Counted from the stretch's first letter, positions 222 through 57,430 are shown. The stretch is DNA of 64,000 nucleotides from Patescibacteria group bacterium (GCA_048499955.1 JASNYX010000001.1:2452-66451), one strand, 5' to 3'. Numbers and translations are program-made. The notes: generated by a model not told the origin, from the sequence alone.

Positions 222-1850
222 ATGGCAAAAAAAATTATTTACGACCAAGAAGCTAGAATCAAACTTAAAAATGGAGTAGATGCAGTTGCAAACGCAGTAG
301 GTGCAACATTAGGTCCGTTAGGTAGAAATGTCGCCATTTCAAAAGAATGGGGCAGTCCGACTTTGACACACGATGGAGTAACAGTCGCCAAAGAAGTCGA
401 ACTTGCTGATCCTTTTGAAAATATGGGTGCCAAGCTTGTAGTTGAAGCCGCTAATAAAACAAACGATGTCGCCGGTGATGGAACAACATCCTCAACTGTT
501 CTTGCGCAAGCAATGGTTGAAGAAGCCCTCAAAAATATAGCAGCAGGTGCAAATCCTATGATTATGCGACGAGGACTTGAAAAAGCTGTAGCAGAACTTG
601 TAGTAGCTATCAAAGAGATGTCCAAGCCTATAAAAACAAAAGAGGAAAAAGCTCAGGTAGCAACAAACTCCGCACAAGATGCAGAAATCGGAAACATAAT
701 AGCGAATGCAATGGAAGAAGTCGGAAACGACGGAATTATTTCGGTCGAAGAAGGCAAAGGTATTTCGATGGAAGAAGCAGAAATCAAAAGCGGATGGGGA
801 TGGGACAATGGATACCTTTCTTCATATTTTGTAACAAACTCCGATAAGATGGAAGCTGAAGTCGAATCACCATACATTCTTATTACGGATAAAAAAATCG
901 AGAACATTCAGGATCTAGTACCGATGCTCGAGAACTTGGTTAAAGTAACTCAAAATCTGGTAATCATTGCAGATGATGTAGGTGGACAAGCTTTAGCTAC
1001 GTTGGTAGTAAATAAACTAAGAGGTACCTTGAAAATTTTAGCGGTTAAAGCACCGGGCTTTGGAGACCGAAGAAAAGCAATGCTTCAAGATATCGCGATT
1101 GTAACCGGTGGTACCGTAATCAGTGAGGATCTTGGTAGAAAGCTGGACTCCATAACAATAGAAGATCTTGGAAGAGCAGACAAAATCACTTCCACTAAAG
1201 ATGAAACACGTATTATCGCCGGAAAAGGTTCTGAAGAATCAATCAAAGACAGAGAATCTCAACTCAGAAGAGAGATCGATGAAACCACAAGTGATTATGA
1301 TAGAGAAAAACTTCAGGAAAGACTCGCTAAACTTGTTGGAGGAGTTGCGATCATCAGAGTCGGTGCTGCAACCGAGTCAGAAATGAAAGAAAAGAAATAT
1401 AGAGTGGAAGATGCGGTTAATGCAACCAAAGCTGCGGTCGCCGAAGGAATAGTCCCCGGAGGAGGAGTTGCTCTACTTAAAGCTAGAAACATACTGAAAG
1501 ATCTTAATCTTGAAGGCGAAGAAAAAATCGGAGCAGATATGCTATACAATGCTCTCGAAATGCCTTTTCGAAAAATCTTAGGAAACGCAGGCTTAGAACC
1601 GGGAAGATACATCAAAGAAGTCGAAGAAAATCTTGATAAAAACATCGGAGTCAACGTGCTTAAGGGTGGAGAACTAGAAGACATGATAAAAGCAGGAGTT
1701 ATTGATCCTGCAAAGGTAACACGAGCCGTCGTTGAAAATGCCGGAAGTGTAACTATTAATATTATGTGTACTTCAGCACTTATTGCTCCGGAAAAAGAAG
1801 ACAAACCTGAACCTGAACATAACCATGGTGCCGGTATGGGAATGATGTAA
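222..1850 (+). CDS. groEL: Chaperonin GroEL (60 kDa), 542 aa with C-terminal GGM-type tail (GAGMGMM)
   Basis: Canonical GroEL sequence over full length (AAGANP, DGTTSS, GGGVALL motifs) and groES-groEL operon order. Confidence 0.97.
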
Positions 1851-1873
1851 CCTTAACTGCTTCCTTGTAGATC

Positions 1874-1905
1874 AAAAAAAGCCCTCAGTACAGAGGGCTT
1901 TTTTG
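1874..1905 (+). terminator. Rho-independent terminator after groEL (A-run, GCCCTC stem, loop, GAGGGC stem, T-run)
   Basis: aaaaaaaGCCCTCagtacaGAGGGCtttttt read directly; perfect 6-bp GC-rich stem flanked by A7/T6, 24 nt after groEL stop. Confidence 0.6.
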
Positions 1906-2006
1906 TTCTTTCAATTAAAAAAGACTAGACAATTTCGAATACTGAATATACACTCTACAGTTCCCTAAAAGAAGATTTATAATGCGTTTCCTGATAAACT
2001 TTTTGT

Positions 2007-3326
2007 ATGAATGAAAATAATTTAACACCCTTGTCTGATAAAAATCCCTTTCCGGAAAATAACCAGAATCAAACTCCGACCAATACGGCAAACAACGGCC
2101 ACTCCGAATCAGAATATGCAGAGAAACAACCTTTAATCAAACCTGGCAAATTGAGGAGGTTAAAAGCGCTAGGAATCGGATTGGCGATCTTTCTTTTTCT
2201 AGGAGTCGTAGCGTTATTCGCAGTTGCATCATTAACTCAAAATTCGCAGATTCCCTTGCCGACAGCTCCGATAGATGATGATACAGAACAAATCGTCGAG
2301 ATGTCGAAAACCCCTCAATTTGCTTATATAAAGAATGGGAAAGAAATATGGGCAGTAGACGTTACCGGTGAGAACAAAATACTTGTACTGGAATTATCGC
2401 CCGTGGAACAAACTTCATTCACCGCATTATCATGGAAATCTCCGGGTAATTTAACCTATACAATATGTCCGGAGCTATCCGGCTCAAACCAAAATTCAAG
2501 CTGCAAAATTAAGACGATAAACCTTGAGAACCGAGCAGTATTTGATGAATTCGAACTAAATGAGCAAATAAAGAAGATGTCTTGGGATATAACCGGTAGG
2601 TATATGGCTATAGTTTCAGAAGATAATGAGAGTACTTACTTCAAGTTGAAAACAGGAACAATAGTTACAACATTAAATCAGTTTTTAAAAATGCCTGATC
2701 CTGCAGGTACAGATTCAAGGGTGTTTTTTACGCCTGATAGTCAGAATGTTATTTTCTCAGCTATTAGTAGGGTAGTCATCGAAAGAACTAACCGTGAAGA
2801 CGAAGTAATCATAACTCCACTTATTAACACTTACCTGCTTAATGGAACAAAGATAGATGAAATTGAGCAAGCAAAAGATCCTTTCTTAATGTCTCCTAAC
2901 CAAATAGGGTATAGGGTTGAAGATCGATTGGTCTATAGAACCCTTGGTGAAAATGAGGACACCGTGATTACCGACCTTAACGGTTTCAGTCCGGCAATTT
3001 CTCCCGATAAAAGCCAAATTGCATACTGGTATGCGGAAGGTAATCTTAATAATGTGATATTAGGAGTTTTTGATGCGAAATTAAATATTCATAGAAATAT
3101 ATTGCGGGGCATAATTCTTCCCCTTTGGTTGGATGATAAAAAAATAGTAGGAATTAAAGCTGATAATTGTGCTTCCAGTAATTGCCAATTGTATCAATTT
3201 CAGACGAACAGCATTTCGATATTCGATCTTTCAAGAGGGAACGTAATACAAATCGATCATGGGAAAAAAATTATAGAACCAACTTTCACTGATTTTTCAG
3301 AAGTAGCTCGTAATCCGTCGGAATAA
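2007..3326 (+). CDS. Membrane-anchored hypothetical protein, N-terminal TM helix then beta-propeller-like (TolB/PD40-like) ectodomain
   Basis: Long ORF with one hydrophobic helix (LAIFLFLGVVALFAVASL) and repeated propeller-like segments (SPDKSQIAYWY, TPDSQNVIFSA); no specific family recognised. Confidence 0.6.
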   Translation: MNENNLTPLSDKNPFPENNQNQTPTNTANNGHSESEYAEKQPLIKPGKLRRLKALGIGLAIFLFLGVVALFAVASLTQNSQIPLPTAPIDDDTEQIVEMSKTPQFAYIKNGKEIWAVDVTGENKILVLELSPVEQTSFTALSWKSPGNLTYTICPELSGSNQNSSCKIKTINLENRAVFDEFELNEQIKKMSWDITGRYMAIVSEDNESTYFKLKTGTIVTTLNQFLKMPDPAGTDSRVFFTPDSQNVIFSAISRVVIERTNREDEVIITPLINTYLLNGTKIDEIEQAKDPFLMSPNQIGYRVEDRLVYRTLGENEDTVITDLNGFSPAISPDKSQIAYWYAEGNLNNVILGVFDAKLNIHRNILRGIILPLWLDDKKIVGIKADNCASSNCQLYQFQTNSISIFDLSRGNVIQIDHGKKIIEPTFTDFSEVARNPSE

Positions 3327-3327
3327 A

Positions 3328-5013
3328 ATGCCAATCAAAGAAGATAGTCAAAGTACACTAGATGTTTTAAGTGCAATAGCCGGAGGAACAGGGCGTAAAC
3401 ACCCGGTTCCCCAAAACGTAATGGATGTTGAATTCAAAGTGGTGGGAGATTTGTCTCTGAGGCAAGTAGCCTACGCTTTTGCCGGAGTTGGAGTCGCATA
3501 TTTGTTTTTTAAATCCGGCCTTCCGAACTTTTGGGCTTATTCTTTAGCCATTTTCTCCCTAGTTGCAGGAGCTGCAATTGCGTTCGTACCTTATGAAGAA
3601 AGAACTTTAGATAAATGGCTGGTGTTATTTATTCGAGGAATGTTCAGACCCACTCAAATGATATGGAGAAAAGACGAGTATTCCCCGGCATACTTTCTTG
3701 CTGATTATGCGGATATTATCAAAAATGAGATCATAACCCTAACTCCAACAAAAAGCAGAAACAAACTGGATGACTATCTTGGACGTCTCCCCGACGACCC
3801 CGATAACATGGATATTTATAGTAAGGATAGAGTCCAGGATATCTTCCTACAAGTTGAGAATTTAAATATAGGAGCCGAAGTCGTCACTAATGATAATCTC
3901 ATCTCAATGAGAGCAAAGGAAGACGAGCCCAAATTAAAATTCCCTGATATTCACACAACAAAACCTGTCGTAACTGCTAACCAAGCTTCTGAAATACAAA
4001 CACCTGCACAAACTTTACCTACCACACCAACAGAAACAGCACCTCCCATAAGCCCTAAAGAACCGCAATTGGTAGTACAAGACAAAATTGATAACCAAAC
4101 AAGAAATGCACCCTCAAGCGAACCATATGTACCACCCAACAAAAATGAAATAGTTAACGCAGAAATTGAAACCAAAAAAGAACTCGTTGAGGCACTTAAC
4201 ACTAACTATGTAGAAGTTGTATCTTCCGATCATATTGATAGACCAATAAAAAATTGGCCAACCGAACTCGACTCACAAATTAAAGGTGAATTTAAAATAA
4301 AAACATCTACCAAACTGCCACCGACAATCGTGGCACAAGATATAAAAGTAATTAAGGAACAAGAAGAATCTCTAGAAAAGAAGGTGCATGAGCTACTTGA
4401 GGTTGCAGATAGAGCTAAGAAAGAATTCCAGGGTAAAGGATTTCAAATTGATAATAATTCGAGAATGGAATTCTACAAGAACAAATACCATGAATTAAAG
4501 CAAGAAAAAGAGACACTCACTACGGAAATAAGCAAAAATACGTCAAGAGTAAATATGCTTGAGGGGCATAAACAAAAAGAACCTCTGGAAAAACAGGTAA
4601 ATGAATTAACAGATAGAAACAAAGAACTTGAAGAAAAACTAATGCAAATACAAGAACAACTTTTCAATCTCCAGAAAAAACCCGAAGAAAAACCGGTTAT
4701 CAAAGAACCGGAACCTCCAAAAGATCGTGTTTTAAATACTTCTGATTCTGAAAATATAAATATTATTAGCGGAACTGTAAAAGGTAAATCAGGTGATCTG
4801 ATAGAAAACGCAGTTGTACTGATTAAGGATTTGCAAGGTAATGTTTCCAGGGCTTTGAAAACTAATAAGCTCGGCCAATTTAAAACCCAAACACCAATGC
4901 CTAACGGTTCATACGACATACACATCATAAAAGGCGGTGAAAACTTTGATATAATTCGTGTTGAAGCCGTTGGTGCAGAAATAAGCCCCGTTTATATGAT
5001 TGGAAAGCCTTAA
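3328..5013 (+). CDS. PrgI/VirB3-like T4SS membrane protein with long coiled-coil/Pro-Thr-rich extension and C-terminal carboxypeptidase-regulatory-like beta domain
   Basis: N-terminal two-helix hydrophobic core (VAYAFAGVGVAYLFF...LAIFSLVAGAAIAFVPY) typical of VirB3/PrgI, directly upstream of VirB4-like ATPase; heptad-rich KE segment; C-terminal SGTVKGKSGDLIENAVVLIKDLQGN beta-sandwich-like segment. Confidence 0.5.
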   Translation: MPIKEDSQSTLDVLSAIAGGTGRKHPVPQNVMDVEFKVVGDLSLRQVAYAFAGVGVAYLFFKSGLPNFWAYSLAIFSLVAGAAIAFVPYEERTLDKWLVLFIRGMFRPTQMIWRKDEYSPAYFLADYADIIKNEIITLTPTKSRNKLDDYLGRLPDDPDNMDIYSKDRVQDIFLQVENLNIGAEVVTNDNLISMRAKEDEPKLKFPDIHTTKPVVTANQASEIQTPAQTLPTTPTETAPPISPKEPQLVVQDKIDNQTRNAPSSEPYVPPNKNEIVNAEIETKKELVEALNTNYVEVVSSDHIDRPIKNWPTELDSQIKGEFKIKTSTKLPPTIVAQDIKVIKEQEESLEKKVHELLEVADRAKKEFQGKGFQIDNNSRMEFYKNKYHELKQEKETLTTEISKNTSRVNMLEGHKQKEPLEKQVNELTDRNKELEEKLMQIQEQLFNLQKKPEEKPVIKEPEPPKDRVLNTSDSENINIISGTVKGKSGDLIENAVVLIKDLQGNVSRALKTNKLGQFKTQTPMPNGSYDIHIIKGGENFDIIRVEAVGAEISPVYMIGKP

Positions 5014-5019
5014 AATTAG

Positions 5020-5715
5020 ATGCCGAAAATTAACTTATCGACACAAAGCCATCTTGATATAGCACAAATCAAAAATAATATCGTGGTACTGAAAAATGGC
5101 GGAGCTGCAGCGATAATAGAAACCAATGCAATTAACTTCGATTTATTGGCAGTACAAGAACAAGATGCGGCAATTGCGGCGTATAGTTCACTCCTGAATT
5201 CCCTTACTTTTCCTATACAAGTAACAATCAGATCAAAAAAGATGGATATCACAGACTATCTGGAAAGGGTAAAAGAATTCGAGGAAAAACAAACGAACCC
5301 AAAAGTTAAAAGCCAAATACAAATGTACAGATCCTTTATTAAAGATGAACTGGTAACAAAAGAAAATGTATTAGAAAAACGATTTTATGTAACCATACCT
5401 TATAAAACTTTCGATCTCGGAAATTCTTCTAGCCCATTAGGGTTCCTTGAAGGATTTTTGGATTTACAACCCAAGCCGAAAACAAAAATAAACGTTGACC
5501 AGATATTAGAAGAAGCTAAAACCGAGTTGGATCCCAAAGTAATATTTTTAATTAAAGAATTTGGTAGGATAGGTATTAAAGCAAATCAAGTAAAAACTCC
5601 CGATCTTATCAAACTATTTTATGAGATTTATAACAGTGAAACAGCACAGAATCAGAGAATTAAAGGCGACATGGAACACTTTACTTCAACTTTAGTAGAA
5701 CCGAAAATTATTTAA
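5020..5715 (+). CDS. Hypothetical protein between VirB3-like and VirB4-like genes (T4SS-associated by position)
   Basis: 231-aa ORF, tightly packed (6-nt and 9-nt gaps) in the same operon; no recognisable motif. Confidence 0.6.
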   Translation: MPKINLSTQSHLDIAQIKNNIVVLKNGGAAAIIETNAINFDLLAVQEQDAAIAAYSSLLNSLTFPIQVTIRSKKMDITDYLERVKEFEEKQTNPKVKSQIQMYRSFIKDELVTKENVLEKRFYVTIPYKTFDLGNSSSPLGFLEGFLDLQPKPKTKINVDQILEEAKTELDPKVIFLIKEFGRIGIKANQVKTPDLIKLFYEIYNSETAQNQRIKGDMEHFTSTLVEPKII

Positions 5716-5724
5716 TAGCTTAAT

Positions 5725-7956
5725 ATGAATTTGCCTTTCCTAAAAAAGAAAACTCCAGAAACAACACCCAACACAAACCAACAAAACAATATTGGGGTTT
5801 CAGTGCCGGGTATGGCTACTTCTACTGCCTCATTAGCAAAACAAACTTCGTCGGCGAAACTTCCTGAAACAGCGGAAAAAGCTCTGGCAAAAGGCATACC
5901 AAGCGTTCAGGATATCATTGCTCCGAGTGCAATAGAGGTGGATTATAACTATGTCAAAATCGGTGATAAATACTTTAGAACTTTATTTGTGTCTGCGTAT
6001 CCACGTTTTGTAGGGGCAAACTGGTTAGAGCCTATTATTAACTTTGATCATGCTTGTACGGTTACGATGTTTTACTACCCGATGAATGCCAGGAATGTTT
6101 TAGATGATTTAAGAAGAAAAATCGCTGAAATGGAGGCGACACTGAGCATGGCGAAAGAGCGGGGGAGAGTCGTTGACCCGGCAGTCCAAGCAGCCTTGGG
6201 GGATGCAAAATCTTTACAGGAACAGCTGGTTAAAGGTATCGAAAGGTTTTTCCACTTTTCATTCTATATTACATTGTCAGCACCAACATTAGAGGAACTA
6301 AACAACGTAAGTTATCAAATGGAATCCACACTGGGCTCTCTTTCTTTAATTTCGAAGAAAGCTACTCTGGACATGGAAAACGCTTTTAAATCGACCCTAC
6401 CATTATGTTTGGATAGGCTGAAAGTCATCAGAAATATGGATACTACTTCGGTAGCAACAACATTTCCTTTTACCTCAAGTGAACTTACCGCCAACGAAGG
6501 TATTTTATATGGAATCAACAAACACAATGGATCACTTATTATCTTCGATAGATTTTCACTTGAAAACGCCAACGCTGTAATTTTTGCTAAATCAGGTTCA
6601 GGTAAATCCTACTTCGTTAAACTGGAAGCCCTAAGATCGTTATTATTCGGAACCGGTGTTATCGTACTTGATCCTGAAACAGAATATAAGAAATTGTGCG
6701 AAGCAGTAGGAGGAGATTACATTGATTTCAGTATTAACACAAAAGCAAAAATAAACCCGTTCGAGCTCTCCGTGACGGAAGACAATGAAGATAATTTAAG
6801 TATGAAAATTCTGAGTCTTCATGCTCTTTTGAAAATCATGTTAGGAGACATGTCCAGTGCGGAAGCTGCCGTGCTTGACCGAGCCTTAATTGATACTTAT
6901 CGACTAAAAGGAATTACACAAGATCCGGCCTCACAACAACATAATGAACCACCTCTGATGGAAGACCTTTATAAAACCCTTCAAGTCATGGAAGAACCTG
7001 AATCAAAGGCATTAGCTGCCAGGCTTGAACGATTCGTAAAAGGTTCTCTTGCCGGTATTTTTGACCAAAGATCTAACCTTGATTTAAGTAATGACTTTAC
7101 TGTTTTTTCTATCCGAAACCTACAAGATGTGCTAAGGCCAATTGCAATGTTTATGATACTTGATTTTATTTGGACTAAAGTCAAATACAATCTTAAACGT
7201 CGAATGCTGATTCTCGACGAAGCATGGACTTTAATGCAATATCCTGACTCGGCCGCTTTCGTATATTCATTAGCGAAAAGAGCTAGAAAATACTATCTTG
7301 GGTTAACAACTATCACTCAAGACGTAAATGACTTTTTAAATTCAGACTATGGAAAAGCAGTAGTAACAAACTCTTCTATTCAAGTTCTCTTAAAGCAGCA
7401 TCCTGCTTCGATGGAGGCGCTTACTGAAATTTTCTACCTCTCAGGTGGGGAAAGGAACTTTTTGCTCTCAGCGGGCATTGGAGAGGGCTTATTCTTTGCA
7501 GGAACCAATCACGTTGCTATGTCAGTTAAGGCTTCGAAACAGGAACACGCACTGATAACTACAAATCCTGCAGAAGTTATGAAGATGCAAAAAGATCAGG
7601 ATATTGAAAAGCTAATTCAGCAAAATATAAACAGCAACAATTTGGCAAACATGCAATCGCAAGCTATGAATAATAATTCCCTAAAGATCAACACAGTTCC
7701 CAACGTACAACCCGGAGTACCACCTGTCACAAACAACAATCCTGGCAGCACTGTAATACCGGTAGTAACACCCATTAACCAGGCACCTATAAATACGCCA
7801 ACCAATGTTGGTCAGGTTAATCCTTATGAAAGTAAATCGGTACCACCGAATAATTCTTCGGTACAAATGCCAAACCCGATGGTAGGCGAAGATCAGGAAA
7901 ACAACTACACAAGTGGCACAATAATGCTGAATCCGAATAGAAATAATCAGGAATAA
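5725..7956 (+). CDS. virB4: VirB4/TrbE/CagE-family type IV secretion ATPase with Q/N/P-rich C-terminal tail
   Basis: Walker A AKSGSGKSY, Walker B LILDEAWTL, overall VirB4 (DUF87) layout; last ~130 aa low-complexity (NNNSLKINTVPNVQPGVPPVTNNNPGS...). Confidence 0.85.
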   Translation: MNLPFLKKKTPETTPNTNQQNNIGVSVPGMATSTASLAKQTSSAKLPETAEKALAKGIPSVQDIIAPSAIEVDYNYVKIGDKYFRTLFVSAYPRFVGANWLEPIINFDHACTVTMFYYPMNARNVLDDLRRKIAEMEATLSMAKERGRVVDPAVQAALGDAKSLQEQLVKGIERFFHFSFYITLSAPTLEELNNVSYQMESTLGSLSLISKKATLDMENAFKSTLPLCLDRLKVIRNMDTTSVATTFPFTSSELTANEGILYGINKHNGSLIIFDRFSLENANAVIFAKSGSGKSYFVKLEALRSLLFGTGVIVLDPETEYKKLCEAVGGDYIDFSINTKAKINPFELSVTEDNEDNLSMKILSLHALLKIMLGDMSSAEAAVLDRALIDTYRLKGITQDPASQQHNEPPLMEDLYKTLQVMEEPESKALAARLERFVKGSLAGIFDQRSNLDLSNDFTVFSIRNLQDVLRPIAMFMILDFIWTKVKYNLKRRMLILDEAWTLMQYPDSAAFVYSLAKRARKYYLGLTTITQDVNDFLNSDYGKAVVTNSSIQVLLKQHPASMEALTEIFYLSGGERNFLLSAGIGEGLFFAGTNHVAMSVKASKQEHALITTNPAEVMKMQKDQDIEKLIQQNINSNNLANMQSQAMNNNSLKINTVPNVQPGVPPVTNNNPGSTVIPVVTPINQAPINTPTNVGQVNPYESKSVPPNNSSVQMPNPMVGEDQENNYTSGTIMLNPNRNNQE

Positions 7957-7962
7957 ATTTCT

Positions 7963-9072
7963 TTACCAGGAAGCCCTCATAGGCATCACAATATACAGGT
8001 AATCGTCATTTCCTGTAACCTTAAAGGCAGCTGGCTTTAACGGATCGTTAGCTTCAAAAGAAATTTCATCACCTTCCGCATTGCTTACAAGGTCTATCAG
8101 ATACTTTGCATTAAATGCAATTTCAATAGGAGTACCTGTGAATTCTCCTTGGACTTTTATGATGTTACTACCGGACTCAGTAGGTTGAGAGCGAACTTCA
8201 ACAAGATCTGCATTCGCAACCATTTTTACCATGTTGTCCTGATCTTTCGAAAATACACTAGCCAACTTAATGGCATTACTCACTTCCGATTTGGCGATTA
8301 AAACTTTGGTATTAAATTCAGAAGGAATAATTGCTCTATAATCAGGATATTCGCCTTCGATCATTCTAAGTTGAGCCTGCATATCTTTCACCCTAAGATT
8401 CACAACATTTCGGTTATTGTTAATAAACATCTCCACATACTCATTTTCGGAAGAAAAAGATTTTACGATATCAGTAAAGGATCGGGAAGGTACAATGCAG
8501 GAAGACTCAAATCCATAGTCTTTATCTAGCTTAATTTTATACTCCGCCATTCTGAAACCATCCGTCACAGCAAGAGTCATCTGATCCTTCGATATCATGA
8601 TATAAATACCGGTTAATACCGGCCTGCTTTCATTTACACCGGGAACAAATTGAATATGCTGAAGTGCCCTCACCAAATCTTCTGATTTAAGCTTCACATG
8701 ATCGCCCTCTTCTATAACTTCAATATCAGGAAACTCTGATGCGGGTAGTGTAGTAAAGGTGGAAGTTATCTTCTCGGTCTGAACGTGAAATTTACCATCT
8801 GCGACGGAGCAATCGACTTTATCTTCGTTTATCTGACCGATGAAGCTTTGTAATAGTTTAGCGGGTATAGTAGTCTCGCCCGGTTGTTCGATGTTGGCAT
8901 TCGTCCATATTGAAATAGTTACCTGCAAGTCAGAAGCGGTCATTTTAATTTGACCCTCTTCAGTTTTAACCAGAATATTGGATAAAGCAGGGATAGCAAC
9001 TTTAGGGTTAACAGCTTTGTTAACAATGTTTACGCCTTTGTTAAAAGGTCCTCTAATAATGCTGAATTTCAT
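7963..9072 (-). CDS. dnaN: DNA polymerase III beta sliding clamp
   Basis: 369-aa three-domain clamp-like sequence (MKFSIIRG..., DGFRMAEY). Sequence check: revcomp of 9061-9072 is ATGAAATTCAGC, and the tail 7963-7974 ttaccaggaagc reverse-complements to ...gct tcc tgg taa (ASW*). The ORF is therefore minus-strand, despite the '+' label in the supplied track. Confidence 0.9.
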   Translation of the reverse strand: MKFSIIRGPFNKGVNIVNKAVNPKVAIPALSNILVKTEEGQIKMTASDLQVTISIWTNANIEQPGETTIPAKLLQSFIGQINEDKVDCSVADGKFHVQTEKITSTFTTLPASEFPDIEVIEEGDHVKLKSEDLVRALQHIQFVPGVNESRPVLTGIYIMISKDQMTLAVTDGFRMAEYKIKLDKDYGFESSCIVPSRSFTDIVKSFSSENEYVEMFINNNRNVVNLRVKDMQAQLRMIEGEYPDYRAIIPSEFNTKVLIAKSEVSNAIKLASVFSKDQDNMVKMVANADLVEVRSQPTESGSNIIKVQGEFTGTPIEIAFNAKYLIDLVSNAEGDEISFEANDPLKPAAFKVTGNDDYLYIVMPMRASW

Positions 9073-9084
9073 ATGTAAATAGAA

Positions 9085-9585
9085 TTACTGAGAATCCACA
9101 CTGATATCCGCACCTGAGTCATTTTCCGAATCCATGGAAATTATAACTTTCCTGTTAGGGCCGTCACCTTCAGAATATGACCTGACCCCTTCGATGGCGT
9201 TGACTACTTCATGCACAATTTTGCGTTCATAACTGCTCATCGGATATAGACTAACGGATTTATTAAGTTCTTTAGCTTTTGAGGCAGCATTCGAAGCCAT
9301 TTCCCTCAATTTTGTTTCCTTATTTTTTCTGTAATTGCTAACATCAATAACTATGGGAGCATGCTCGCCAAGTTCTTTGGATAGAAAAATGTTAATAAGA
9401 AACTGTAAGGAATTTAATGTATGTCCATGATAACCGACTAAAAGGCTATCACTTGTGGTTCTCAAATTAAAATAGAGCTTTTCTTCTGTCGGATGTTCCA
9501 CTTCAGAGGAATACTCAATGTCCAGATATCCTAAAATTTCTGAAAGAAGTTCTTTAACTCGCTGTTCCAGGTTTTGATTTTCCAT
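9085..9585 (-). CDS. jag: Jag/KhpB-like RNA-binding protein (KH + R3H domain)
   Basis: R3H-like segment YERKIVHEVVNAIEGVRSYSEGDGPNRKVII; conserved position downstream of yidC. Confidence 0.8.
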   Translation of the reverse strand: MENQNLEQRVKELLSEILGYLDIEYSSEVEHPTEEKLYFNLRTTSDSLLVGYHGHTLNSLQFLINIFLSKELGEHAPIVIDVSNYRKNKETKLREMASNAASKAKELNKSVSLYPMSSYERKIVHEVVNAIEGVRSYSEGDGPNRKVIISMDSENDSGADISVDSQ

Positions 9586-10336
9586 AATAATTCAAATATA
9601 AGTACTGAAGTGCAGTCAAAACTGTAGACACAAGCCAATACCAAACTAAACCAGCGGGAAGACTAATGCCAATAACTAAAGTTAAAATCGGCATAGTATA
9701 CAACATTTGTTCTTGCATATTATACATAATGTCGTCAACCTTGTCAGGCGTGTTTTCTGCGACTTTCTCTACTTTTTTGGTTGCAGGAGCCATTAATCTG
9801 GATAAATAAAACTGGGCAGCCGCAGCTAAGACCGGTAAAACGTAGTTAGGTCGTGCCAAATCTATGTTGAATAAATTAGTATTTAACTGCTGATCGGGTT
9901 GAAACTTGAGATAATCCCAATTATAAAGCATCGAATTTATCGTATCCAACATTACCTGGTGATCCTGAAAGAGCGTGTTAAAAATGCTGTATAAGGGTGC
10001 CAAAATGAAAATAAAAGTGAACAGCTGAGGCAAACAACCGGACGCAGGATTTATGCCTTCCTGCTTATAAAGCTCCATCTGTTTTTGAGCAAGTTTCTGC
10101 TTGTCATCTTTATATTTTGCCTTCAGTTCATCAAATTTGGGTTTAAGCTCCCTTTGTTTCTTAGCAATCTCATAGGAGTTTTTTGTCATAGGGTAGGTGA
10201 CAACTTTCACAAGCAATGTGACAGCTAAAATAGCGAGTGCCATATTATCAGAACAAAGGTGATAAAAGAAAACCAGAAGGTTGAAGAGAGGATAATATAT
10301 TATGTTGTTCCAAAGGAAAACGATGGGATTTGCCAT
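9554..10336 (-). CDS. yidC: Membrane protein insertase YidC/Oxa1 (short form)
   Basis: Polytopic 260-aa protein with YidC-like helices and a KKQ-rich amphipathic loop; operon position rnpA-yidD-yidC-jag. Confidence 0.85.
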   Translation of the reverse strand: MANPIVFLWNNIIYYPLFNLLVFFYHLCSDNMALAILAVTLLVKVVTYPMTKNSYEIAKKQRELKPKFDELKAKYKDDKQKLAQKQMELYKQEGINPASGCLPQLFTFIFILAPLYSIFNTLFQDHQVMLDTINSMLYNWDYLKFQPDQQLNTNLFNIDLARPNYVLPVLAAAAQFYLSRLMAPATKKVEKVAENTPDKVDDIMYNMQEQMLYTMPILTLVIGISLPAGLVWYWLVSTVLTALQYLYLNYYGKSKPGTAS

Positions 10337-10349
10337 AAATACTACTAAA

Positions 10350-10583
10350 TTATCTCACTGGATCATAACCGCCTTTTGACAAGGGATTGCATCTTAATAT
10401 TCTCCAGAAGCCTAAAAATGACCCTTTAAAAAGTCCGTACTTATCAATTGCCTCATATGTATACTGGGAACAATACGGCTCAAATTTACAAACCCTGATA
10501 CCTAAACCTTTTAGGATTCCTTGATCAAGCGACAGCCATTTTTGGTAGAAGCGTATTAATTTCAGAGCTAATATCTTTAGCAT
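10350..10583 (-). CDS. yidD: Membrane protein insertion efficiency factor YidD
   Basis: 77 aa; [10 protein letters not shown]...[10 protein letters not shown] matches the YidD (DUF37) signature. Confidence 0.85.
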
Positions 10584-10878
10584 TGAGACTTATTTTACCA
10601 CTAAAACCTAAGAGGTTTTTCTTAGGAATAAACACATATCGACCATCAGGAAAATAGTTTAAATTCTCACGAATGGCTTCGGAAATTATTCTTTTCGCCT
10701 TACTTTTAATGACCGCCTTCTTATTGAACTTACTAGATACGATAATCCCAAATTGCTTGCCTCCCTCGGAATGTCTATATGACTTCACCATTAAGTTAGG
10801 AGTATAGAAAGTTTCACCGTTCTGCAAAACTGCCTTGAAGTTATATTTTCCTTTGAGACTAAATTTACGTTGCAACAA
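10525..10878 (-). CDS. rnpA: Ribonuclease P protein component
   Basis: 117-aa basic protein, [24 protein letters not shown] motif typical of RnpA; directly downstream of rpmH. Confidence 0.85.
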
Positions 10879-10902
10879 GGTATTATCCTAGGAAGTTCTA
10901 TA

Positions 10903-11058
10903 TTAATCTTGACGGCCTCTATTAATGGCCAAACGTTTTCGTCCTTTATATCGGCGTCTTTTCAACACATTTCGGCCATCTTTTGAGGACATTCGTTTTA
11001 GGAAACCATGCTTTCTGTTTCCTTTTTTCTTTTTTGGTTGCCAGGTTCTTTTAGGCAT
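10903..11058 (-). CDS. rpmH: 50S ribosomal protein L34 (51 aa; not in the ORF track because it is under 60 aa)
   Basis: Manual minus-strand translation: [51 protein letters not shown], the L34 signature (KRT.QP...HGF..RM....GR.VL.RRR.KGRK.L); 25 nt upstream of rnpA. Confidence 0.85.
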
Positions 11059-11295
11059 AACGAGGGAATTTTAACACAAACTCAACGTTTTTCGTATGGG
11101 AAATTCAATAGATTCAGTTTAATTCAGATAATTTAGTTAATACCTCTAGAAGCTATCTGAAAACCTCAAGAATCCTCATAATTACAACGGATCTAAAAAG
11201 CTTTCCAAAATGAGCTTGAGGCACGGAAAAGTATCGAAAGGACAACGACATCCACCGAAACCGTTTCGAACTTTAGAAAGGTTTTAAGAAGAGTT

Positions 11296-13002
11296 CTAGT
11301 ACGATTCAAACTCAAAATCGTCAATACTTTTGAGGTACTTAACGTGATCTTCCCTAAAATGTTCGTATTTTTTCAGGTTACTACCATTCGTAGATATGAA
11401 ATCTGCGGCAAAATGAGCTCCGATATAGTGAGAAAGTACCACAACAGTAACTCCCGCAGAGTACAATTCAAGAGCATTTTTCATTGTATCCGAGATTACG
11501 ATAATGATCGCTTGGTCATTAATCTTTCTAACCGCCTGACTAATTAGCATGTTGGTTTCTAAATCAGGTATTGTCGAAACAATAAACTTAGAGCTTTTTA
11601 ATGGAAGTTCCCCCAAAAATTCAACATCGGAAGCATCTCCATATTCATAGAGGCCATTCGTGTTCTGTATTTTTCCCGTACAGTTGGGATTGTAATCAAC
11701 CACAAGAAATTTCATGCCTTTTTCCTTAAATAATCTTCCGAATTCCGGACCCGCCCGCTTATATCCGAAGATGATCGCCTCGAAATCTTCTTCCTCGCGT
11801 TTAACTACCTTTCCAACCTTACGAAATTCAAGGAGTGCGAGATACTTTCCAATATAAGAAAATATTTTTTCGGAATATAAGATTAAATATGTAGAACCTG
11901 CGATCGTGAATATTCCTACAAGGGTAATCATAGACAAAATCTCTCTCGATAAATGTCCTGAATCAAAACCAAGCTTTATCAATATAAGAGAAAACTCACT
12001 AATCTGAGCTACTGTAAGCCCGGCCATAAACCCTGTTTTTCTCGTATATCCCATTAGATTTAGAAGTATAAGAACAATAATTGGGTTACCAATAAGAATA
12101 AAAGTGGAAAAAAGAACTGTTGGCGCAAGCAGGGAACTCCAATTATCGAAAACCATTTGATATCCAAGAAGTATAAAAAATAGAGTAATAAAAAAATCTC
12201 GGAGTGGCTTCATTCTTGAGGATATCTCATTAGAATACGGCGTCATTGATAAAGTTACTCCCGCTACTAAAGCACCAATTTCTATAGATAAACCCAAAAT
12301 ATGATATAGCGAGGCAATCATCATTCCCCAAGCCAAAGAAGAAATAAATAAGAATTCCTGAGATTTAGCAAAAAATACCGTCATTCTGGAAAGAACGTGT
12401 GTCGAAAACATGAACAGAAACATTAATAGAAACAAACCTTGCATTAACAGAAACAACAAACTTAATACCGCATCAGTAGAAATTCCACCGTGAAAAGAAC
12501 TCAAGCTTGAAATACCAACTAAGATAATGGTTGCGATTAAATCCTGAACAAGAAGAAAACCAATAGATATTCGTCCATATAATTTATTAACATCGCCCTT
12601 ATCTGAAAGTAGTTTAAGAATGATTATTGTACTGCTGAAAGTAAGTGCAACCGCAATATATATAGATTCAAGCGTACTGAACCCCAATAAAATTCCCAGA
12701 ATATAACCGAATATTGAAGTGAATAATACCTGTCCTACTCCGGTTACGGTTGAAACTACCCCTAACTCTTTTAAAACCTTAGGGCTTAAACCCAAACCGA
12801 CAATGAACAACAATGCAGTTATTCCAAGTTTTGAGAATAATTCCACAACCTCTACAGAGGTTAAGATATTTAAAAAATACGGACCCACTAACAAGCCGGT
12901 GATAATGTACCCGATCACTAAAGGTTGTTTTAAAAACCTCATTACAATCGAAATAAGAAGTGCAACAAAAAGTATTAAGCTTATTTCCGTAAACTGTTCC
13001 AT
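11296..13002 (-). CDS. Kef-type monovalent cation:proton antiporter (CPA2) with C-terminal RCK/TrkA-N domain
   Basis: About 12 TM helices followed by Rossmann-like IIFGYKRAGPEFGRLFKEKGMKFLVVDYNP. Confidence 0.8.
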   Translation of the reverse strand: MEQFTEISLILFVALLISIVMRFLKQPLVIGYIITGLLVGPYFLNILTSVEVVELFSKLGITALLFIVGLGLSPKVLKELGVVSTVTGVGQVLFTSIFGYILGILLGFSTLESIYIAVALTFSSTIIILKLLSDKGDVNKLYGRISIGFLLVQDLIATIILVGISSLSSFHGGISTDAVLSLLFLLMQGLFLLMFLFMFSTHVLSRMTVFFAKSQEFLFISSLAWGMMIASLYHILGLSIEIGALVAGVTLSMTPYSNEISSRMKPLRDFFITLFFILLGYQMVFDNWSSLLAPTVLFSTFILIGNPIIVLILLNLMGYTRKTGFMAGLTVAQISEFSLILIKLGFDSGHLSREILSMITLVGIFTIAGSTYLILYSEKIFSYIGKYLALLEFRKVGKVVKREEEDFEAIIFGYKRAGPEFGRLFKEKGMKFLVVDYNPNCTGKIQNTNGLYEYGDASDVEFLGELPLKSSKFIVSTIPDLETNMLISQAVRKINDQAIIIVISDTMKNALELYSAGVTVVVLSHYIGAHFAADFISTNGSNLKKYEHFREDHVKYLKSIDDFEFESY

Positions 13003-13074
13003 TCTTTTTATTCTACATGAACATGTAACACAAAATCTCGAGTTTTCTTTCTATATACTTCGATTCGGGTAAGC

Positions 13075-13104
13075 TGTGGATAATTTGTAATTGACTGTGG
13101 ATAA
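13075..13104. promoter_or_regulatory. Two perfect DnaA boxes (TGTGGATAA = TTATCCACA) 12 nt apart in the dnaA upstream region
   Basis: tgtggataa at 13075-13083 and 13096-13104 read directly; 13-42 nt upstream of the dnaA ATG. Confidence 0.65.
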
Positions 13105-13116
13105 CTGACGCATACA

Positions 13117-14514
13117 ATGAAGTTTATGACCTCACCTGATCCTGATTTTATTTGGAACGAAGTAAAAGGCGAATTACAAAAAGTGACAAATCCGGCTCAC
13201 TACAAAGCTTATATTCCGGGAACTTTTATCAAGAAAATAGATGAAACAGATTACCTAATAGAAATAACCGCACCAAGCGAATTCCAACGAAATTTTATAG
13301 AAGATCGAATGTATGGCCACATAAAGGATTCAATTTCCAGACTAGTAGGCCCCAAGTACAGGTTAATGTTTAGCGTAACTAAAAAAGAACCGGCCCAAAT
13401 GAGTATTGATGATTTTGGCCCTTTATTCGAACAAAAACAGGAGCAAGAACTTAGTATCCAAAGCGTCAAGCAAGATGCAGGTTTAAATCCTCAATATACT
13501 TTTGAAAGATTTGTTGTCGGTAATCATAATCGTCTTGCCTATGCTGTATCTACAGCTATCGCAGAGAATCCCGGTAAAATTTATAACCCGTTCTTCTTAT
13601 ATTCAGGAGTTGGATTAGGTAAAACACATTTAGTTCAGGCAATCGGGCATAAAATTATTGAAAAACATCCGAATTTAAAAATTCTTTACAAAACAGGTGA
13701 GCAGTTTCTGAATGAAGTTGTAGATGCCATTCGGAAAAATAAAAATGGCCCCATGGATAACAGAAGAAATAATCTTAAAAAGATGTATAGAAATATAGAT
13801 GTCTTGATCGTCGATGATATACACTCGATAGCGGGAAAAGAATCCACACAGGAAGAGTTTTTCCATACATTTAATGCTTTATATATGTCTCAAAAGCAAA
13901 TTATCCTGACTTCAGATAGATCCCCTAAAGAAATAAAAACTTTAGAAGAAAGGTTATCTTCTAGATTTGCCAGTGGCATGATGGCAGATATACAAAAACC
14001 CGACATGGAAACACGTCTGGCCATTCTTAAAGATAGAAACGACGAACTACATTTGAATTTAAATGAGGATGTACTTGAGCATATAGCGGTAATGGTTGAT
14101 ACAAATATTAGGGAGCTGGAAGGGAAACTTCTTCAAACAGCTATCAGAGCCAAAAGTGAAGGAATGGAATTAAATAAAGAAAATGCAACTCAAATAATAG
14201 GCGAGATAGATAAAGCAAAAGGAAAACTTATAACTCCAAATCATATTATGCATGAGGTTTGCCAATTCTATAATGTAACTCAAAAAGAGTTAAAAGGAGC
14301 AAGAAGATTAAAAACAATCGTCGTTCCCAGACAGATATGTATGTATATGCTAAGAGATATCACCAAGATGGGTCTACAATCTATTGGTGAGATCCTAGGG
14401 AAAAAAGATCATACAACGGTTATTCATGCCTTACAAAAGATAGAATTGGAAATCAAAAAAAATTCTCGTGTATTCAAAGAAATAGAAACCATTAGATCCC
14501 GCTTATATCTTTAA
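13117..14514 (+). CDS. dnaA: Chromosomal replication initiator DnaA
   Basis: 465 aa; AAA+ Walker A GVGLGKTHL, Walker B LIVDDIH, C-terminal DNA-binding helix (ICMYMLRDITKMGLQSIGEILGKKDHTTVIHA). Confidence 0.95.
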   Translation: MKFMTSPDPDFIWNEVKGELQKVTNPAHYKAYIPGTFIKKIDETDYLIEITAPSEFQRNFIEDRMYGHIKDSISRLVGPKYRLMFSVTKKEPAQMSIDDFGPLFEQKQEQELSIQSVKQDAGLNPQYTFERFVVGNHNRLAYAVSTAIAENPGKIYNPFFLYSGVGLGKTHLVQAIGHKIIEKHPNLKILYKTGEQFLNEVVDAIRKNKNGPMDNRRNNLKKMYRNIDVLIVDDIHSIAGKESTQEEFFHTFNALYMSQKQIILTSDRSPKEIKTLEERLSSRFASGMMADIQKPDMETRLAILKDRNDELHLNLNEDVLEHIAVMVDTNIRELEGKLLQTAIRAKSEGMELNKENATQIIGEIDKAKGKLITPNHIMHEVCQFYNVTQKELKGARRLKTIVVPRQICMYMLRDITKMGLQSIGEILGKKDHTTVIHALQKIELEIKKNSRVFKEIETIRSRLYL

Positions 14515-14834
14515 ATTAACTTATAAATTTTCCACACCCTTTGTAGTTACTTTATGTATATATATTCAGTAGCAGTATTAGTAGGGGATGTGGATATGTT
14601 TATAACAATTAAATACATTTTAATATCAACATAATTAATATGACATGAATGTGTAAAAGTCGATTTTGCCTATAACAACGCCTATATAAATTCCCCTATT
14701 CAATAAAAACCTGCCGGATGAGCGTTTGTTCTTTCCACAGAATGTTAAAGTTCGGGTTAACTTCTGTTCATTAATTTCCACAGTTACCAACAAAGACCGA
14801 TAGCGTAATCCTATTTTACCAACATAAAGCAACT
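14515..14834. promoter_or_regulatory. Candidate oriC: AT-rich non-coding tract downstream of dnaA with at least four DnaA-box-like 9-mers and an AT-rich putative DNA-unwinding element (DUE)
   Basis: ttttccaca (14528-14536), tgtggatat (14589-14597), tttccacag (14732-14740), tttccacag (14775-14783), each one mismatch from TTATCCACA; AT-rich run 14600-14660; 320 nt without a credible ORF. Confidence 0.4.
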
Positions 14835-14948
14835 ATGGGGTATGGTTATGAAAAAGCCTGTAAAATAAGCACTATAATATGGGTATGTGTGAGGGAATTT
14901 AAATCTTGTTCTTATCAGGTTTATAAATTTGTTCGCATTTTTGCTAAA

Positions 14949-16310
14949 ATGTCTTTAATGGATATGAATCAAATTAACGCTTCTTCAGCTAACATGAGTC
15001 GGAATATTAAGCTTTTTATAATAATTTTTGCCGCAATTGTTTTTGTTTTTGGAATTGTAACCCTGGCTTTTAGGTTTTTTAATCCTGGTGCTGAATTGAT
15101 TCCGGGTCAGAAGACGACTCTTGAGTATTGGGGTTTATTTGAGTCGGAGCAAGTTATGATGCCACTAATTAAACAATATGAGGCAGAGAACCCCGATGTG
15201 AAAATTAACTACGTTGAGAAGTCATTTACAAACTTAGAAGAGTATAAACAAACATTGCTTGCGAGAGCTAAGTCAGGAACTTCTCCGGATATTTATCGAA
15301 TGCACGCTACTTGGTCTCCTAAGTTTTCCAATTATCTTGCTCCCGCCGGAGGGGTTTTGAGTGCACAATCCTTTACGGATAAATTTTATGATCCTGCAAG
15401 AGGGGCATGTGTAAATGAGGTTCAGGAGGTTAAATGTATTCCGCTAATGCATGATGGATTGGTGCTGGCTTATAACGTTGATATGTTTAGGGATTCCGGT
15501 GTTAGTCCGAATATACAATCCTGGGAGGATTTGAGATTGGCTGCTAAAAGGCTTTCCAGATATGAAGATGAAACCGAACGTGTTCTGTTACGTGCTGGGG
15601 TCGGTTTAGGTTCGATCGATAATGTAGACAATTTTTCTGATATTTTGATGATTATGTTTTATCAAAGCGGGATCAATAGATTTGAAGAATTTGCTTCAGA
15701 AAAGGCTCAATCTGCCTTTCGGTTTTATGCAAGCTTTGTAAAAGATGATTATATTTGGGACCACGCCTTCCCCAACTCCATAAATGCATTTGCTTCAGAA
15801 CGGTCTGCAATGGTTTTTGTAAAAACATCACAAATGCTAGATATCCTTGAGATAAATCCAACAATTAATATGGCGGTTCTCCCTGTTCCTCAATTACCTA
15901 AATTGGGTGGGGGTACAACTAGTGACTATTTGGCATCAATATGGGTTGAAACTGTTTCTTCGAATTCTTCTTCAAATAAAAAAGTTGAAGCGTGGAAATT
16001 TCTTGAATGGTTGAGTCGTCCGGAACAGCAGATTGCACGATTCAATGAATCCTCGTTATACAAAAAGTTTGGGGAAGCATACAGCCACAAGCAGTTGAGA
16101 AATAATTTGATTAACGCACCGCTTTTGGGGCCAGTAGTTAAAGTTGCTCCGGTATCTCGAATCTCTATTTTTGCTGATGGAATAGGAAACGATCAATATG
16201 TCAATTTATTAAAGGAGACTGCCGAAAAAATGACTACGTTAGGTGGGGGACAAGAGGACCTGATTTTAGAAGAATTTATTGAAGATTATAAGAAACTCCT
16301 GCAAGAATAA
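14949..16310 (+). CDS. ABC transporter extracellular solute-binding protein (family 1, sugar-type), N-terminal TM/signal anchor
   Basis: SBP-like sequence after a hydrophobic anchor (IIIFAAIVFVFGIVTLAF); the track ORF starts at 14835, but MSLMDM (14949) or MSRNIK (14994) are more plausible starts. Confidence 0.7.
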   Translation: MSLMDMNQINASSANMSRNIKLFIIIFAAIVFVFGIVTLAFRFFNPGAELIPGQKTTLEYWGLFESEQVMMPLIKQYEAENPDVKINYVEKSFTNLEEYKQTLLARAKSGTSPDIYRMHATWSPKFSNYLAPAGGVLSAQSFTDKFYDPARGACVNEVQEVKCIPLMHDGLVLAYNVDMFRDSGVSPNIQSWEDLRLAAKRLSRYEDETERVLLRAGVGLGSIDNVDNFSDILMIMFYQSGINRFEEFASEKAQSAFRFYASFVKDDYIWDHAFPNSINAFASERSAMVFVKTSQMLDILEINPTINMAVLPVPQLPKLGGGTTSDYLASIWVETVSSNSSSNKKVEAWKFLEWLSRPEQQIARFNESSLYKKFGEAYSHKQLRNNLINAPLLGPVVKVAPVSRISIFADGIGNDQYVNLLKETAEKMTTLGGGQEDLILEEFIEDYKKLLQE

Positions 16311-18636: not shown

Positions 18637-19211
18637 ATGCCCCTAGACAGAAAGTACGTTTCAAGAGCTGGAGAAAAACTTGAATTCGGTTTGAATCATT
18701 TTGAAATAAACGTAGAAGGTTTAATTTGTGCTGATTTTGGAGCGAGCACAGGCGGTTTCACGGATTGCTTACTAAAGCACGGTGCTGCCAGAGTTTATGC
18801 AGTAGACACAGCTTATGGTGAACTCGATTGGGGATTACGCAACGATTCCAGAGTTATTGTATTAGAAAGAACCAACGTTCTTGACGTTTCGTTACCCGAG
18901 AATCCGGATTTTATATGTTCGGATTTAGGGTGGACCAGGCAGAAAGTATTTTTACCCAAAGCTTTATCCTTATTGAATCAACATGGTGTGCTTGATATCC
19001 CTAATTAAACCTCACTACGAGTCTCCCAAAAATATCTCCAAAAGGGCTTACTGAAACCTGAATATCTTGATGAAGTTCTAGGTGGTGTCTTGAAAGACAT
19101 AACCGATCTGACCTTAGATAATTATGACGTCAGTGAAATAATTGAATCACCTGTATTGGGTGACAAGGCTAAAAACAGGGAATTTCTGATAAAAATCCGT
19201 AAAAAATAAAT
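18637..19211 (+). pseudogene. tlyA: TlyA-family (FtsJ-like) rRNA 2'-O-methyltransferase interrupted by two frameshifts near 18990-19060
   Basis: Frame 1 gives the methyltransferase core (ADFGASTGGFTD...VYAVD) and stops at 19008. Frame 2 (about 18992-19056) reads ISLIKPHYESPKNISKR, the TlyA KPQFE motif. Frame 3 (19051-19211) reads LKPEYLDEVLGGVLKD...SPVLGDKAKNREFLIKIRKK*, the TlyA C-terminus. Confidence 0.5.
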
Positions 19212-32220: not shown

Positions 32221-32274
32221 AAATGAATTTTTAACATCACATAGTATCACGAATAAACTTCGCACTCTACCATT

Positions 32275-33303: not shown

Positions 33304-33329
33304 ATTTCTCTATAAATAATCTATCACTA

Positions 33330-57025: not shown

Positions 57026-57430
57026 TGGTGGAGATGGGGGGAATCGAACCCCCATGCTAAAAGCTTAATCAAATAAAAGTTACATGCTTAACGGTTTTAA
57101 TAATTTGTATATTCTGGAAAACCGTAAAATTAATATACAAATTTGATAATTTTTCTCTGATTTGGTTGGCCTGACAAGTGATTGATCAGAGGAACTTCCT
57201 TTAAAATGCCCGAGGGCAAAAAAAAGGGAAACGCGAGGTTTCTCTTGTCAAACTGCTGAATAAGGATAAATCCGTTTGTAGTGGCTAACTTATGCTATCG
57301 CGTAAGCGGGCACCATTACATCAGCATATTCATCTGCATTGTTTGCATTTATATTTTTGACAGTTTTAAGACTTAACGGTCTGCATGTTCTATTTGAAAT
57401 GTACTTCTAGGCGATGCCTGAAACATCCCC
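57026..57430 (-). ncRNA. ssrA: tmRNA (SsrA), about 405 nt
   Basis: Minus-strand 5' GGGGAUGUUUCAGG... and 3' ...GGGGGUUCGAUUCCCCCCAUCUCCACCA (T-arm plus encoded CCA). The 7-bp acceptor stem includes the G3-U pair. Putative tag ORF GCA AAC AAU GCA GAU GAA UAU GCU... resembles E. coli ANDENYA. smpB lies immediately upstream. Confidence 0.8.

Follow-up and report, generated by a model that had tools for sequence, protein, structure and literature searches.

The window analysed here is a 64,000-nt stretch of a Patescibacteria group bacterium genome (GCA_048499955.1, JASNYX010000001.1:2452-66451; coordinates throughout are window positions), and it carries, at about 8 to 15 kb, the replication genes dnaN and dnaA within an interval that very probably serves as the chromosomal replication origin of this organism, an uncultured WWE3-type bacterium of the candidate phyla radiation, the origin being DnaA-dependent and organised on both sides of dnaA. 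Gene calls were checked against Pfam. On the minus strand run rpmH (ribosomal protein L34; 10903-11058; Ribosomal_L34), rnpA (RNase P protein; 10525-10878; Ribonuclease_P), yidD (10350-10583; YidD), yidC (a short membrane insertase of 260 aa; 9554-10336; 60KD_IMP) and jag/khpB (a KH and R3H RNA-binding protein; 9085-9585; R3H and KH_KhpA-B), and the last gene of this string is dnaN (beta clamp; 7963-9072; all three beta-clamp domains, DNA_pol3_beta, _2 and _3), which starts 12 nt past the jag stop. dnaA itself lies on the plus strand (13117-14514; DnaA_N, Bac_DnaA and Bac_DnaA_C) and is separated from rpmH by a minus-strand gene for a Kef-type cation:proton antiporter with an RCK/TrkA_N domain (11296-13002; Na_H_Exchanger and TrkA_N). 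Beyond dnaA, also on the plus strand, come an extracellular solute-binding-protein gene (sbp; 14994-16310; SBP_bac_1), the first gene of the rightward replichore, and a gene for a LeuRS-type class I aminoacyl-tRNA synthetase (leuS).

In the usual bacterial arrangement, rpmH-rnpA-yidD-yidC-jag diverges from dnaA-dnaN, and oriC lies between dnaA and dnaN or just upstream of dnaA. The original prediction, made from the sequence of this region alone, held that the window departs from this textbook layout, with dnaN after jag on the minus strand and a Kef/RCK transporter between rpmH and dnaA. The Pfam assignments, the gene order and the jag-dnaN junction sequence agree: rather than following dnaA directly on the same strand, dnaN lies on the opposite strand 4 kb away, and 1.7 kb of Kef sequence stands between rpmH and dnaA. 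The change of coding strand that had been noted at about 13.0 kb exists locally but does not extend into a wider trend, since genes at 222-7956 are again on the plus strand.

For comparison, we assembled 80 loci around DnaN relatives in species-representative genomes (81 loci with the window; individual loci are denoted by L numbers) and mapped the window proteins onto them. By its DnaN matches the organism groups with candidate division WWE3 and Patescibacteria: the closest DnaN other than its own is 60% identical, and matches named WWE3 are about 44% identical. Twelve loci, the window included, are of WWE3 type, and 56 of the 81, from sister groups (Levybacteria, other Microgenomates and a Clostridium), show the canonical order, with jag...rpmH divergent from dnaA-dnaN. 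Loci L002-L006 and L008 cluster with WWE3 by DnaN, yet are titled 'uncultured Candidatus Saccharibacteria bacterium' in public records, and many Levybacteria-like loci are titled 'uncultured Gammaproteobacteria'; such record names look unreliable.

Because sliding 2-kb GC skew mostly tracks gene strand, we measured strand asymmetry as G+T at third codon positions, gene by gene and always on the plus strand, and scored change points by their difference in log-likelihood (dLL) against 2000 permutations of gene order. On either coding strand, 10 of the 11 genes to the left of 14.6 kb have a third-position G+T below 0.5, and 32 of the 36 to the right exceed 0.5. The highest-scoring change point separates dnaA from the gene after it (14514/14994, dLL 92.2); scores are lower at 13002/13117 (85.1) and 16310/16313 (70.6), and the permutation maximum is 56.8 (n=2000). 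Within the 64-kb window the asymmetry thus changes sign with G and T in excess rightward on the plus strand and leading away from the locus, a polarity that marks an origin rather than a terminus. The cumulative minima, which the original prediction had named as a check on an origin here, fall at the locus and not elsewhere in the window (14505 for third positions, 13061 for raw G-C and 14833 for raw keto content), and together with the composition switch they uphold the placement of the origin region. Four relatives likewise switch exactly within the dnaA 3' spacer (L002, L010, L011 and L063; dLL 86, 21, 90 and 82 over 19-21 kb each).

The spacer in which composition changes is probably longer than it had seemed. 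Homology of sbp to its relatives starts only at residue 46-69 of the open reading frame (ORF) opening at 14835, and a signal-peptide-like start occurs at ATG 14994; the true sbp start is therefore probably 14994 rather than 14835, and with it the dnaA 3' spacer would span about 479 nt (14515-14993), so that the AT-rich tract of 320 nt originally described after dnaA is AT-rich as stated (69% A+T, against 62% for the window) but was probably measured too short. A protein start at the conserved CTATGGG containing ATG 14835 was considered and rejected, as L002 has a stop after 8 codons, L004 has no ATG there and homology begins later.

A scan for DnaA boxes finds them on both sides of dnaA, as had been proposed. 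In the 3' spacer there are two boxes with one mismatch, TTTTCCACA (14528-14536, plus strand) and ATATCCACA (14589-14597, minus strand), and at least five with two mismatches (14597-14605, 14731-14739, 14774-14782, 14784-14792 and 14816-14824), so that the four near-consensus boxes claimed earlier were a fair count. Finding two one-mismatch boxes within 479 nt is in itself only moderately unlikely (P ~0.01), and one-mismatch boxes occur at chance level across the window (18 against 20.9 expected), and the raw count of weak boxes therefore carries little weight.

The arrangement of these boxes matches a published grammar. The basal unwinding system (BUS) of bacterial origins comprises one or tandem DnaA boxes, a short GC-rich spacer, DnaA-trios and an AT-rich element (PMC8287927, PMC7561715), and has been defined by a box with at most 2 mismatches to TTATCCACA (at most 4 for a weaker tandem box), 0-16 bp to the first trio, at least 3 consecutive trios of the form 3'-NAN-5' with a central A and the consensus 3'-GAT-5', and an adjoining AT-rich element (PMC8287927). 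Read on the minus strand from 14605 to 14537, the spacer of the window runs TTATAAACA/ATATCCACA, TCCC, six trios and aatatatatacataaag. Its distal box (TTATAAACA, 14597-14605, 2 mismatches) shares one base with the proximal box (ATATCCACA, 1 mismatch); a TCCC spacer (14585-14588) puts 4 nt between the proximal box and the trios and 12 nt between the distal box and the trios; and the six DnaA-trios (14567-14584) read CTA CTA ATA CTG CTA CTG on the minus strand, or GAT GAT TAT GAC GAT GAC on the plus strand taken 3'->5'. Next to them lies an AT-rich tract (14537-14566, 77% A+T, with the core tatgtatatatatt at 14552-14566) that we propose as the DNA unwinding element, and on its far side the forward box TTTTCCACA, 13 nt past the dnaA stop.

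This module stands in register in seven relatives, degenerate in one of them (L002, L004, L008, L009, L010, which is the degenerate case, L011 and L063), and hence in eight WWE3 loci with the window. The six-trio frame is kept in the relatives, with a deviating third trio in L004, L011 and L063; the AT tract adjoins the trios in all relatives that have the module; and a box occupies the place of TTTTCCACA in 7 relatives, in degenerate form (2 mismatches) in L011 and L063. The density of box-trio patterns within 600 nt downstream of dnaA is about 22 times that in the remainder of the 1.1 Mb of loci, in a scan that allowed spacers of at most 8 nt; with their spacers of about 12 nt, most canonical relatives escaped it. 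Their modules were recovered by direct reading of the spacers and by profile search, and follow the same grammar: a profile of the WWE3 module matches the spot directly upstream of dnaN in canonical relatives with E-values down to 3e-7, among them the Firmicute Clostridium acidisoli (L080, E 6.5e-7), L054 and L071. From the match to the published grammar, the conservation and the profile matches upstream of dnaN, the unwinding site is most likely at about 14537-14584 in the dnaA 3' spacer. A structured RNA was also sought in this spacer, and Rfam at a permissive E-value gave only snoRNA-like matches at chance level, for which reason that candidate was dropped.

On the other side of dnaA, the 114-nt leader contains the only two perfect TTATCCACA boxes of the 64-kb window, both on the minus strand (13075-13083 and 13096-13104) and both where the original prediction had put them; 0.69 such boxes are expected by chance per 64 kb, and the probability of at least two within 114 nt is ~8e-7. 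They lie at a promoter-like site, TTGACT-16-TACAAT (13091-13118, plus strand), which matches the consensus at 10/12 positions and scores best in the 10.8-15.1 kb interval: the first box, whose position is conserved in relatives, lies 8 nt upstream of the -35 hexamer, and the second sits in the spacer between the promoter hexamers, at a distance of 21 bp from the first. Six relatives keep this 21-bp pair (L004, L008, L009, L010, L011 and L063), and seven relatives share the order TGTGGATAA, 12 nt ending in TTGAC, TGTGGATAA, about 9 nt, TAnAAT, 7 to 10 nt and start codon. In the window the dnaA -10 ends 7 nt ahead of ATG 13126 and is overlapped by the annotated start at 13117, and the true dnaA start may be 13126. 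The rpmH upstream spacer (11059-11295, minus strand) likewise retains a block, GGnATTTTAACAC, conserved with L002, L004, L011 and L063; on the rpmH strand it reads TTAAAAT (11068-11074), about 9 nt ahead of the rpmH ATG, and we infer that it is a putative rpmH -10 element. Both -10-like hexamers, TACAAT of dnaA and TTAAAAT of rpmH, thus lie 7-10 nt before start codons in the window and its relatives, a short distance that suggests leaderless or near-leaderless dnaA and rpmH mRNAs.

In E. coli and B. subtilis, dnaA promoters are autoregulated by DnaA through boxes that overlap the promoter. The leader of the window resembles them in having two high-affinity boxes two helical turns apart, one of them between -35 and -10, and differs in that its -10 is only 7-10 nt from the start codon and in that its spacer must also drive the inserted Kef gene. 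The simplest reading is that the leader boxes would serve as operators of the dnaA promoter rather than as the unwinding part of oriC, with DnaA repressing its own gene from two perfect boxes at a conserved promoter of the sigma-70 type, one immediately before the -35 and one in its spacer. They may also aid the origin in the manner of the upstream box clusters of bipartite origins. In origins of that kind (B. subtilis, H. pylori and C. difficile) clusters of boxes occupy both spacers beside dnaA, and the two sub-regions are both required or interact by looping out dnaA; the leader of the window holds two boxes, both perfect, and so falls short of the three-box cluster rule cited in PMC7561715.

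From these elements the following course of initiation may be proposed. DnaA would bind the tandem boxes that overlap by one base at 14589-14605 and would then oligomerise onto the six trios at 14567-14584, opening the AT tract at 14537-14566, from which forks would depart in both directions. dnaN, which is not linked to dnaA and is the last cistron of the rpmH-rnpA-yidD-yidC-jag string, would be transcribed in the direction of the leftward fork.

Several observations weigh against an origin of this design. No clean composition switch occurs at the dnaA 3' spacer in L004, which comes from a complete chromosome, or in L008 and L009, and the skew of the window itself covers 64 kb rather than a whole chromosome, with only 13-14 kb to the left of the proposed origin. 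In the window, the 30-mers richest in A+T (90%, 14599-14641) sit beyond the boxes, opposite the trios; this far-side stretch is found in the window and not in relatives. The proximal box departs from the consensus by 1 mismatch and the distal box by 2, and the region holds no more promoter-like sites overall than chance predicts (15 against 15.3 expected), so that the dnaA promoter call rests on conservation.

Two alternatives bear on where unwinding takes place. The first, which we regard as unlikely, would put the unwinding site in the kef-dnaA leader (13003-13116) and leave the 3' spacer as an auxiliary region for DnaA binding or titration: the strongest boxes of the window are indeed in the leader, the raw cumulative G-C minimum falls at 13061, and the change-point score of 85.1 at 13002/13117 is near the best score of 92.2. 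However, the leader (67% A+T) has neither a trio array nor an AT tract and is mostly occupied by the conserved promoter, the conserved module of box, GC-rich spacer, trios and AT tract is found only in the 3' spacer, and in four relatives composition switches on the 3' side of dnaA. The second, which we consider quite improbable, limits the boxes to gene regulation and DnaA titration and places the origin elsewhere, as in genomes where oriC is separated from dnaA. Boxes at a dnaA promoter exist wherever the origin lies, and the composition evidence spans a 64-kb window and not the whole genome; against this, a switch independent of gene orientation occurs exactly here, exceeds all 2000 permutations and recurs in four relatives, at a place where a complete module of the unwinding type is conserved. 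We therefore retain the reading of the interval as an origin with its unwinding site in the dnaA 3' spacer.

The Kef gene is the feature of the locus that is particular to this genome. It occurs between rpmH and dnaA in none of the relatives examined, and it is a single-gene insertion of a native gene between the divergent core promoters of rpmH and dnaA. Kef homologues with 72-53% identity are common throughout WWE3 and Microgenomates, the three closest of them in unrelated gene neighbourhoods, and the third-position composition of the gene agrees with the left replichore. Acquisition by horizontal transfer was rejected on the spread of the homologues and on this composition, and relocation of a native gene is preferred. 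The insertion is later than the gene order common to the clade, the gene landing between promoters whose conserved blocks remain intact on both of its flanks. That the placement is unique among relatives and comes from a metagenome-assembled genome could point to an assembly chimera, but this is very improbable: the identical kef-dnaA-sbp order, together with 116 nt of the rpmH-kef spacer, is found on a separate, independent 4.5-kb contig (L001) from a public sequencing run, and both the intact promoter blocks and the replichore-matched composition fit a genuine insertion.

The rpmH-proximal junction varies among relatives. dnaA is adjacent to and divergent from rpmH in L002, L004, L010, L011 and L063, as in the canonical layout, whereas Kef intervenes in the window; in L008 (6073-8000) and L009 (1072-2990) the whole segment from dnaA through the module to a conserved non-coding block, E90 (described below), is inverted, with dnaA co-directional with rpmH...dnaN and E90 facing rpmH. 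The junction appears to be an insertion hot spot. In L007 a 308-aa multi-pass transporter-like gene (1803-2729), not dnaA, lies upstream of rpmH, and in three loci with jag-dnaN (L006 1-1163, L007 and L015 1-1700) dnaA is not beside rpmH.

The position of dnaN, in contrast to that of Kef, is a lineage trait. The order rpmH-rnpA-yidD-yidC-jag-dnaN, on one strand, occurs in all 12 WWE3-type loci, whose DnaN proteins are 44-56% identical to that of the window and form one cluster in a neighbour-joining tree; since jag-dnaN is common to loci whose DnaN has diverged this far, the event predates the clade, and dnaN behind jag is ancestral to the whole WWE3-type clade. In five WWE3-type loci dnaA diverges from rpmH and is followed by the same sbp and leuS genes. 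L015 also has jag-dnaN, though it falls outside the WWE3-type cluster. The original prediction had treated the layout as locally rearranged and had named a comparison of dnaN synteny, with a lineage-typical layout as the outcome that would tell against it; for dnaN that is the outcome obtained, and only the Kef wedge stands as specific to this genome. We accordingly give almost no credence to a recent local rearrangement that moved dnaN behind jag in this genome, for although the layout differs from the canonical one of 56 of the 81 sampled loci, its dnaN part is refuted by jag-dnaN in every WWE3-type locus of one clade at 44-56% DnaN identity, and conservation extends to the virB4-like and sbp/leuS genes on the flanks.

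How the WWE3 order arose can be reconstructed in part. Were the block [jag...rpmH / dnaA + origin] turned around with respect to dnaN, the canonical order would become that of WWE3, with leuS beyond dnaA, and a single inversion would account for the gene order. As a full account it was rejected, and is retained as a partial one: the WWE3 module lies on the strand opposite dnaA with its AT tract adjoining the dnaA stop, whereas in canonical relatives the module is co-oriented with dnaA and abuts dnaN, a flip in polarity that a single inversion leaves unexplained and for which a second event is needed. That event might have been, for example, a local flip between the inverted boxes at 14528-14536 and 14589-14597, or an inverted transposition. 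A different order is seen in another member of the Patescibacteria, L073 (8190-13209), where dnaA-dnaN-rpmH-yidC-jag all share a strand and the module keeps its place upstream of dnaN.

Some 150 nt past the module's boxes, alignment and nhmmer delimit a conserved non-coding block of about 100 nt (14744-14847, plus strand), which we call E90. It is present in all eight WWE3 dnaA 3' spacers (the window, L002, L004, L008-L011 and L063; nhmmer E 1e-18 to 1e-24), and nhmmer found no other match across the 81 loci. The block has invariant TTCGGGT and CTATGGG motifs together with TTCTGTT and motifs resembling CCTATA and TACTA, and two degenerate boxes in forward orientation lie in it at a spacing of 32 nt (14784-14792 and 14816-14824). 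RNAalifold predicted no consensus pairs across the 8 orthologous sequences, and the block has no Rfam match. E90 stays with dnaA even where the next gene differs, as in L008 and L009. TTCGGGT occurs near DnaA boxes in both spacers that flank dnaA (13064-13070 in the leader and 14751-14757 in the 3' spacer) and between the two leader boxes in L004, L008 and L009; in the window as a whole it occurs 8 times on the plus strand and once on the minus strand, against ~2.8 expected per strand.

The foremost guesses are that E90 is a region of DnaA oligomerisation or is bound by an accessory factor. It is possible, and we put it forward tentatively, that the segment comprising dnaA, the unwinding module and E90 is a redesigned origin cassette of WWE3 that moves as a unit, with the module turned toward dnaA, E90 as a new origin component and dnaN expression coupled to the rpmH-yidC-jag operon instead of DnaA autoregulation. 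If this were so, E90 might for instance be where an accessory factor particular to the lineage docks, or where DnaA oligomerises.

Apart from any such redesign, the origin belongs to the known kind built on DnaA boxes and DnaA-trios and is a variant in its gene context and in the polarity of its module. Like origins of the B. subtilis and Clostridioides difficile type, it has boxes upstream and downstream of dnaA, and its downstream part shares their grammar of tandem boxes, a 4-nt GC-rich spacer, six central-A trios of the 3'-GAT-5' type and an AT tract. The box 6/7 pair of B. subtilis has the same one-base overlap. The likeness extends to Clostridium acidisoli (L080), where TTATACACAtATCAACAgccc is followed by CTA CTA CTA TTA CTA and an AT tract, compared with TTATAAACAtATCCACAtccc, CTA CTA ATA CTG CTA CTG and an AT tract on the minus strand of the window. 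Unlike the B. subtilis and C. difficile cases, whose modules point away from dnaA and toward dnaN, the window has its module on the strand opposite dnaA with the AT tract by the dnaA stop, its next gene encodes a solute-binding protein and is not dnaN, its upstream part consists of only two boxes, both on the promoter, and it has the extra conserved block E90. Canonical Patescibacteria of the Microgenomates/Levybacteria type, in which jag-yidC-yidD-rnpA-rpmH diverges from dnaA-dnaN and a convergent virB4-like type IV secretion cluster follows, have the same gene set, the same virB4-like genes beside dnaN and the same kind of module; the window differs from them in that dnaN is behind jag, dnaA faces sbp and leuS (the block being inverted) and the polarity of the module relative to dnaA is reversed.

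On its far side, dnaN converges with a gene for a VirB4/TraG-like ATPase (5725-7956), with 6 nt between the stop codons and a PrgI-like gene before it, and the same two genes, the VirB4-like one and that upstream of it, adjoin dnaN in WWE3-type and canonical relatives alike. They are part of a type IV secretion-like cluster (3328-7956) that comprises a PrgI-family protein, a 231-aa protein with no Pfam match and the VirB4/TraG P-loop ATPase. Type IV secretion genes near dnaA and dnaN have already been published for Patescibacteria (PMC12102498), which was the only paper returned by our searches for Patescibacteria origins; we found no description of the WWE3 origin region in the literature searched. 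Elsewhere in the window there are a transfer-messenger RNA gene (57026-57430, minus strand) with the predicted tag peptide ANNADEYADVMVPAYAIA; a 123-aa ORF (18637-19008, plus strand) that matches only the first 107 of 181 positions of an FtsJ methyltransferase profile and may be truncated or split; and very large minus-strand ORFs at 20285-22933 and 28582-37367 (882, 1227, 342 and 1345 aa), the 882-aa one having no Pfam match.

These results do not overturn the current understanding of bacterial origins, and describe a lineage-typical variant of a well-known system. For annotation, they mean that WWE3-type origins can be placed in the dnaA 3' spacer by their box-trio module, despite the missing landmark of adjacent dnaA and dnaN. 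E90, being clade-specific, is a concrete candidate for an origin or regulatory element. The lineage also amounts to a natural experiment, in that the same module functions, if our reading is right, in the opposite orientation to dnaA and without dnaN beside it, and it may thereby show which features of origin context are dispensable.

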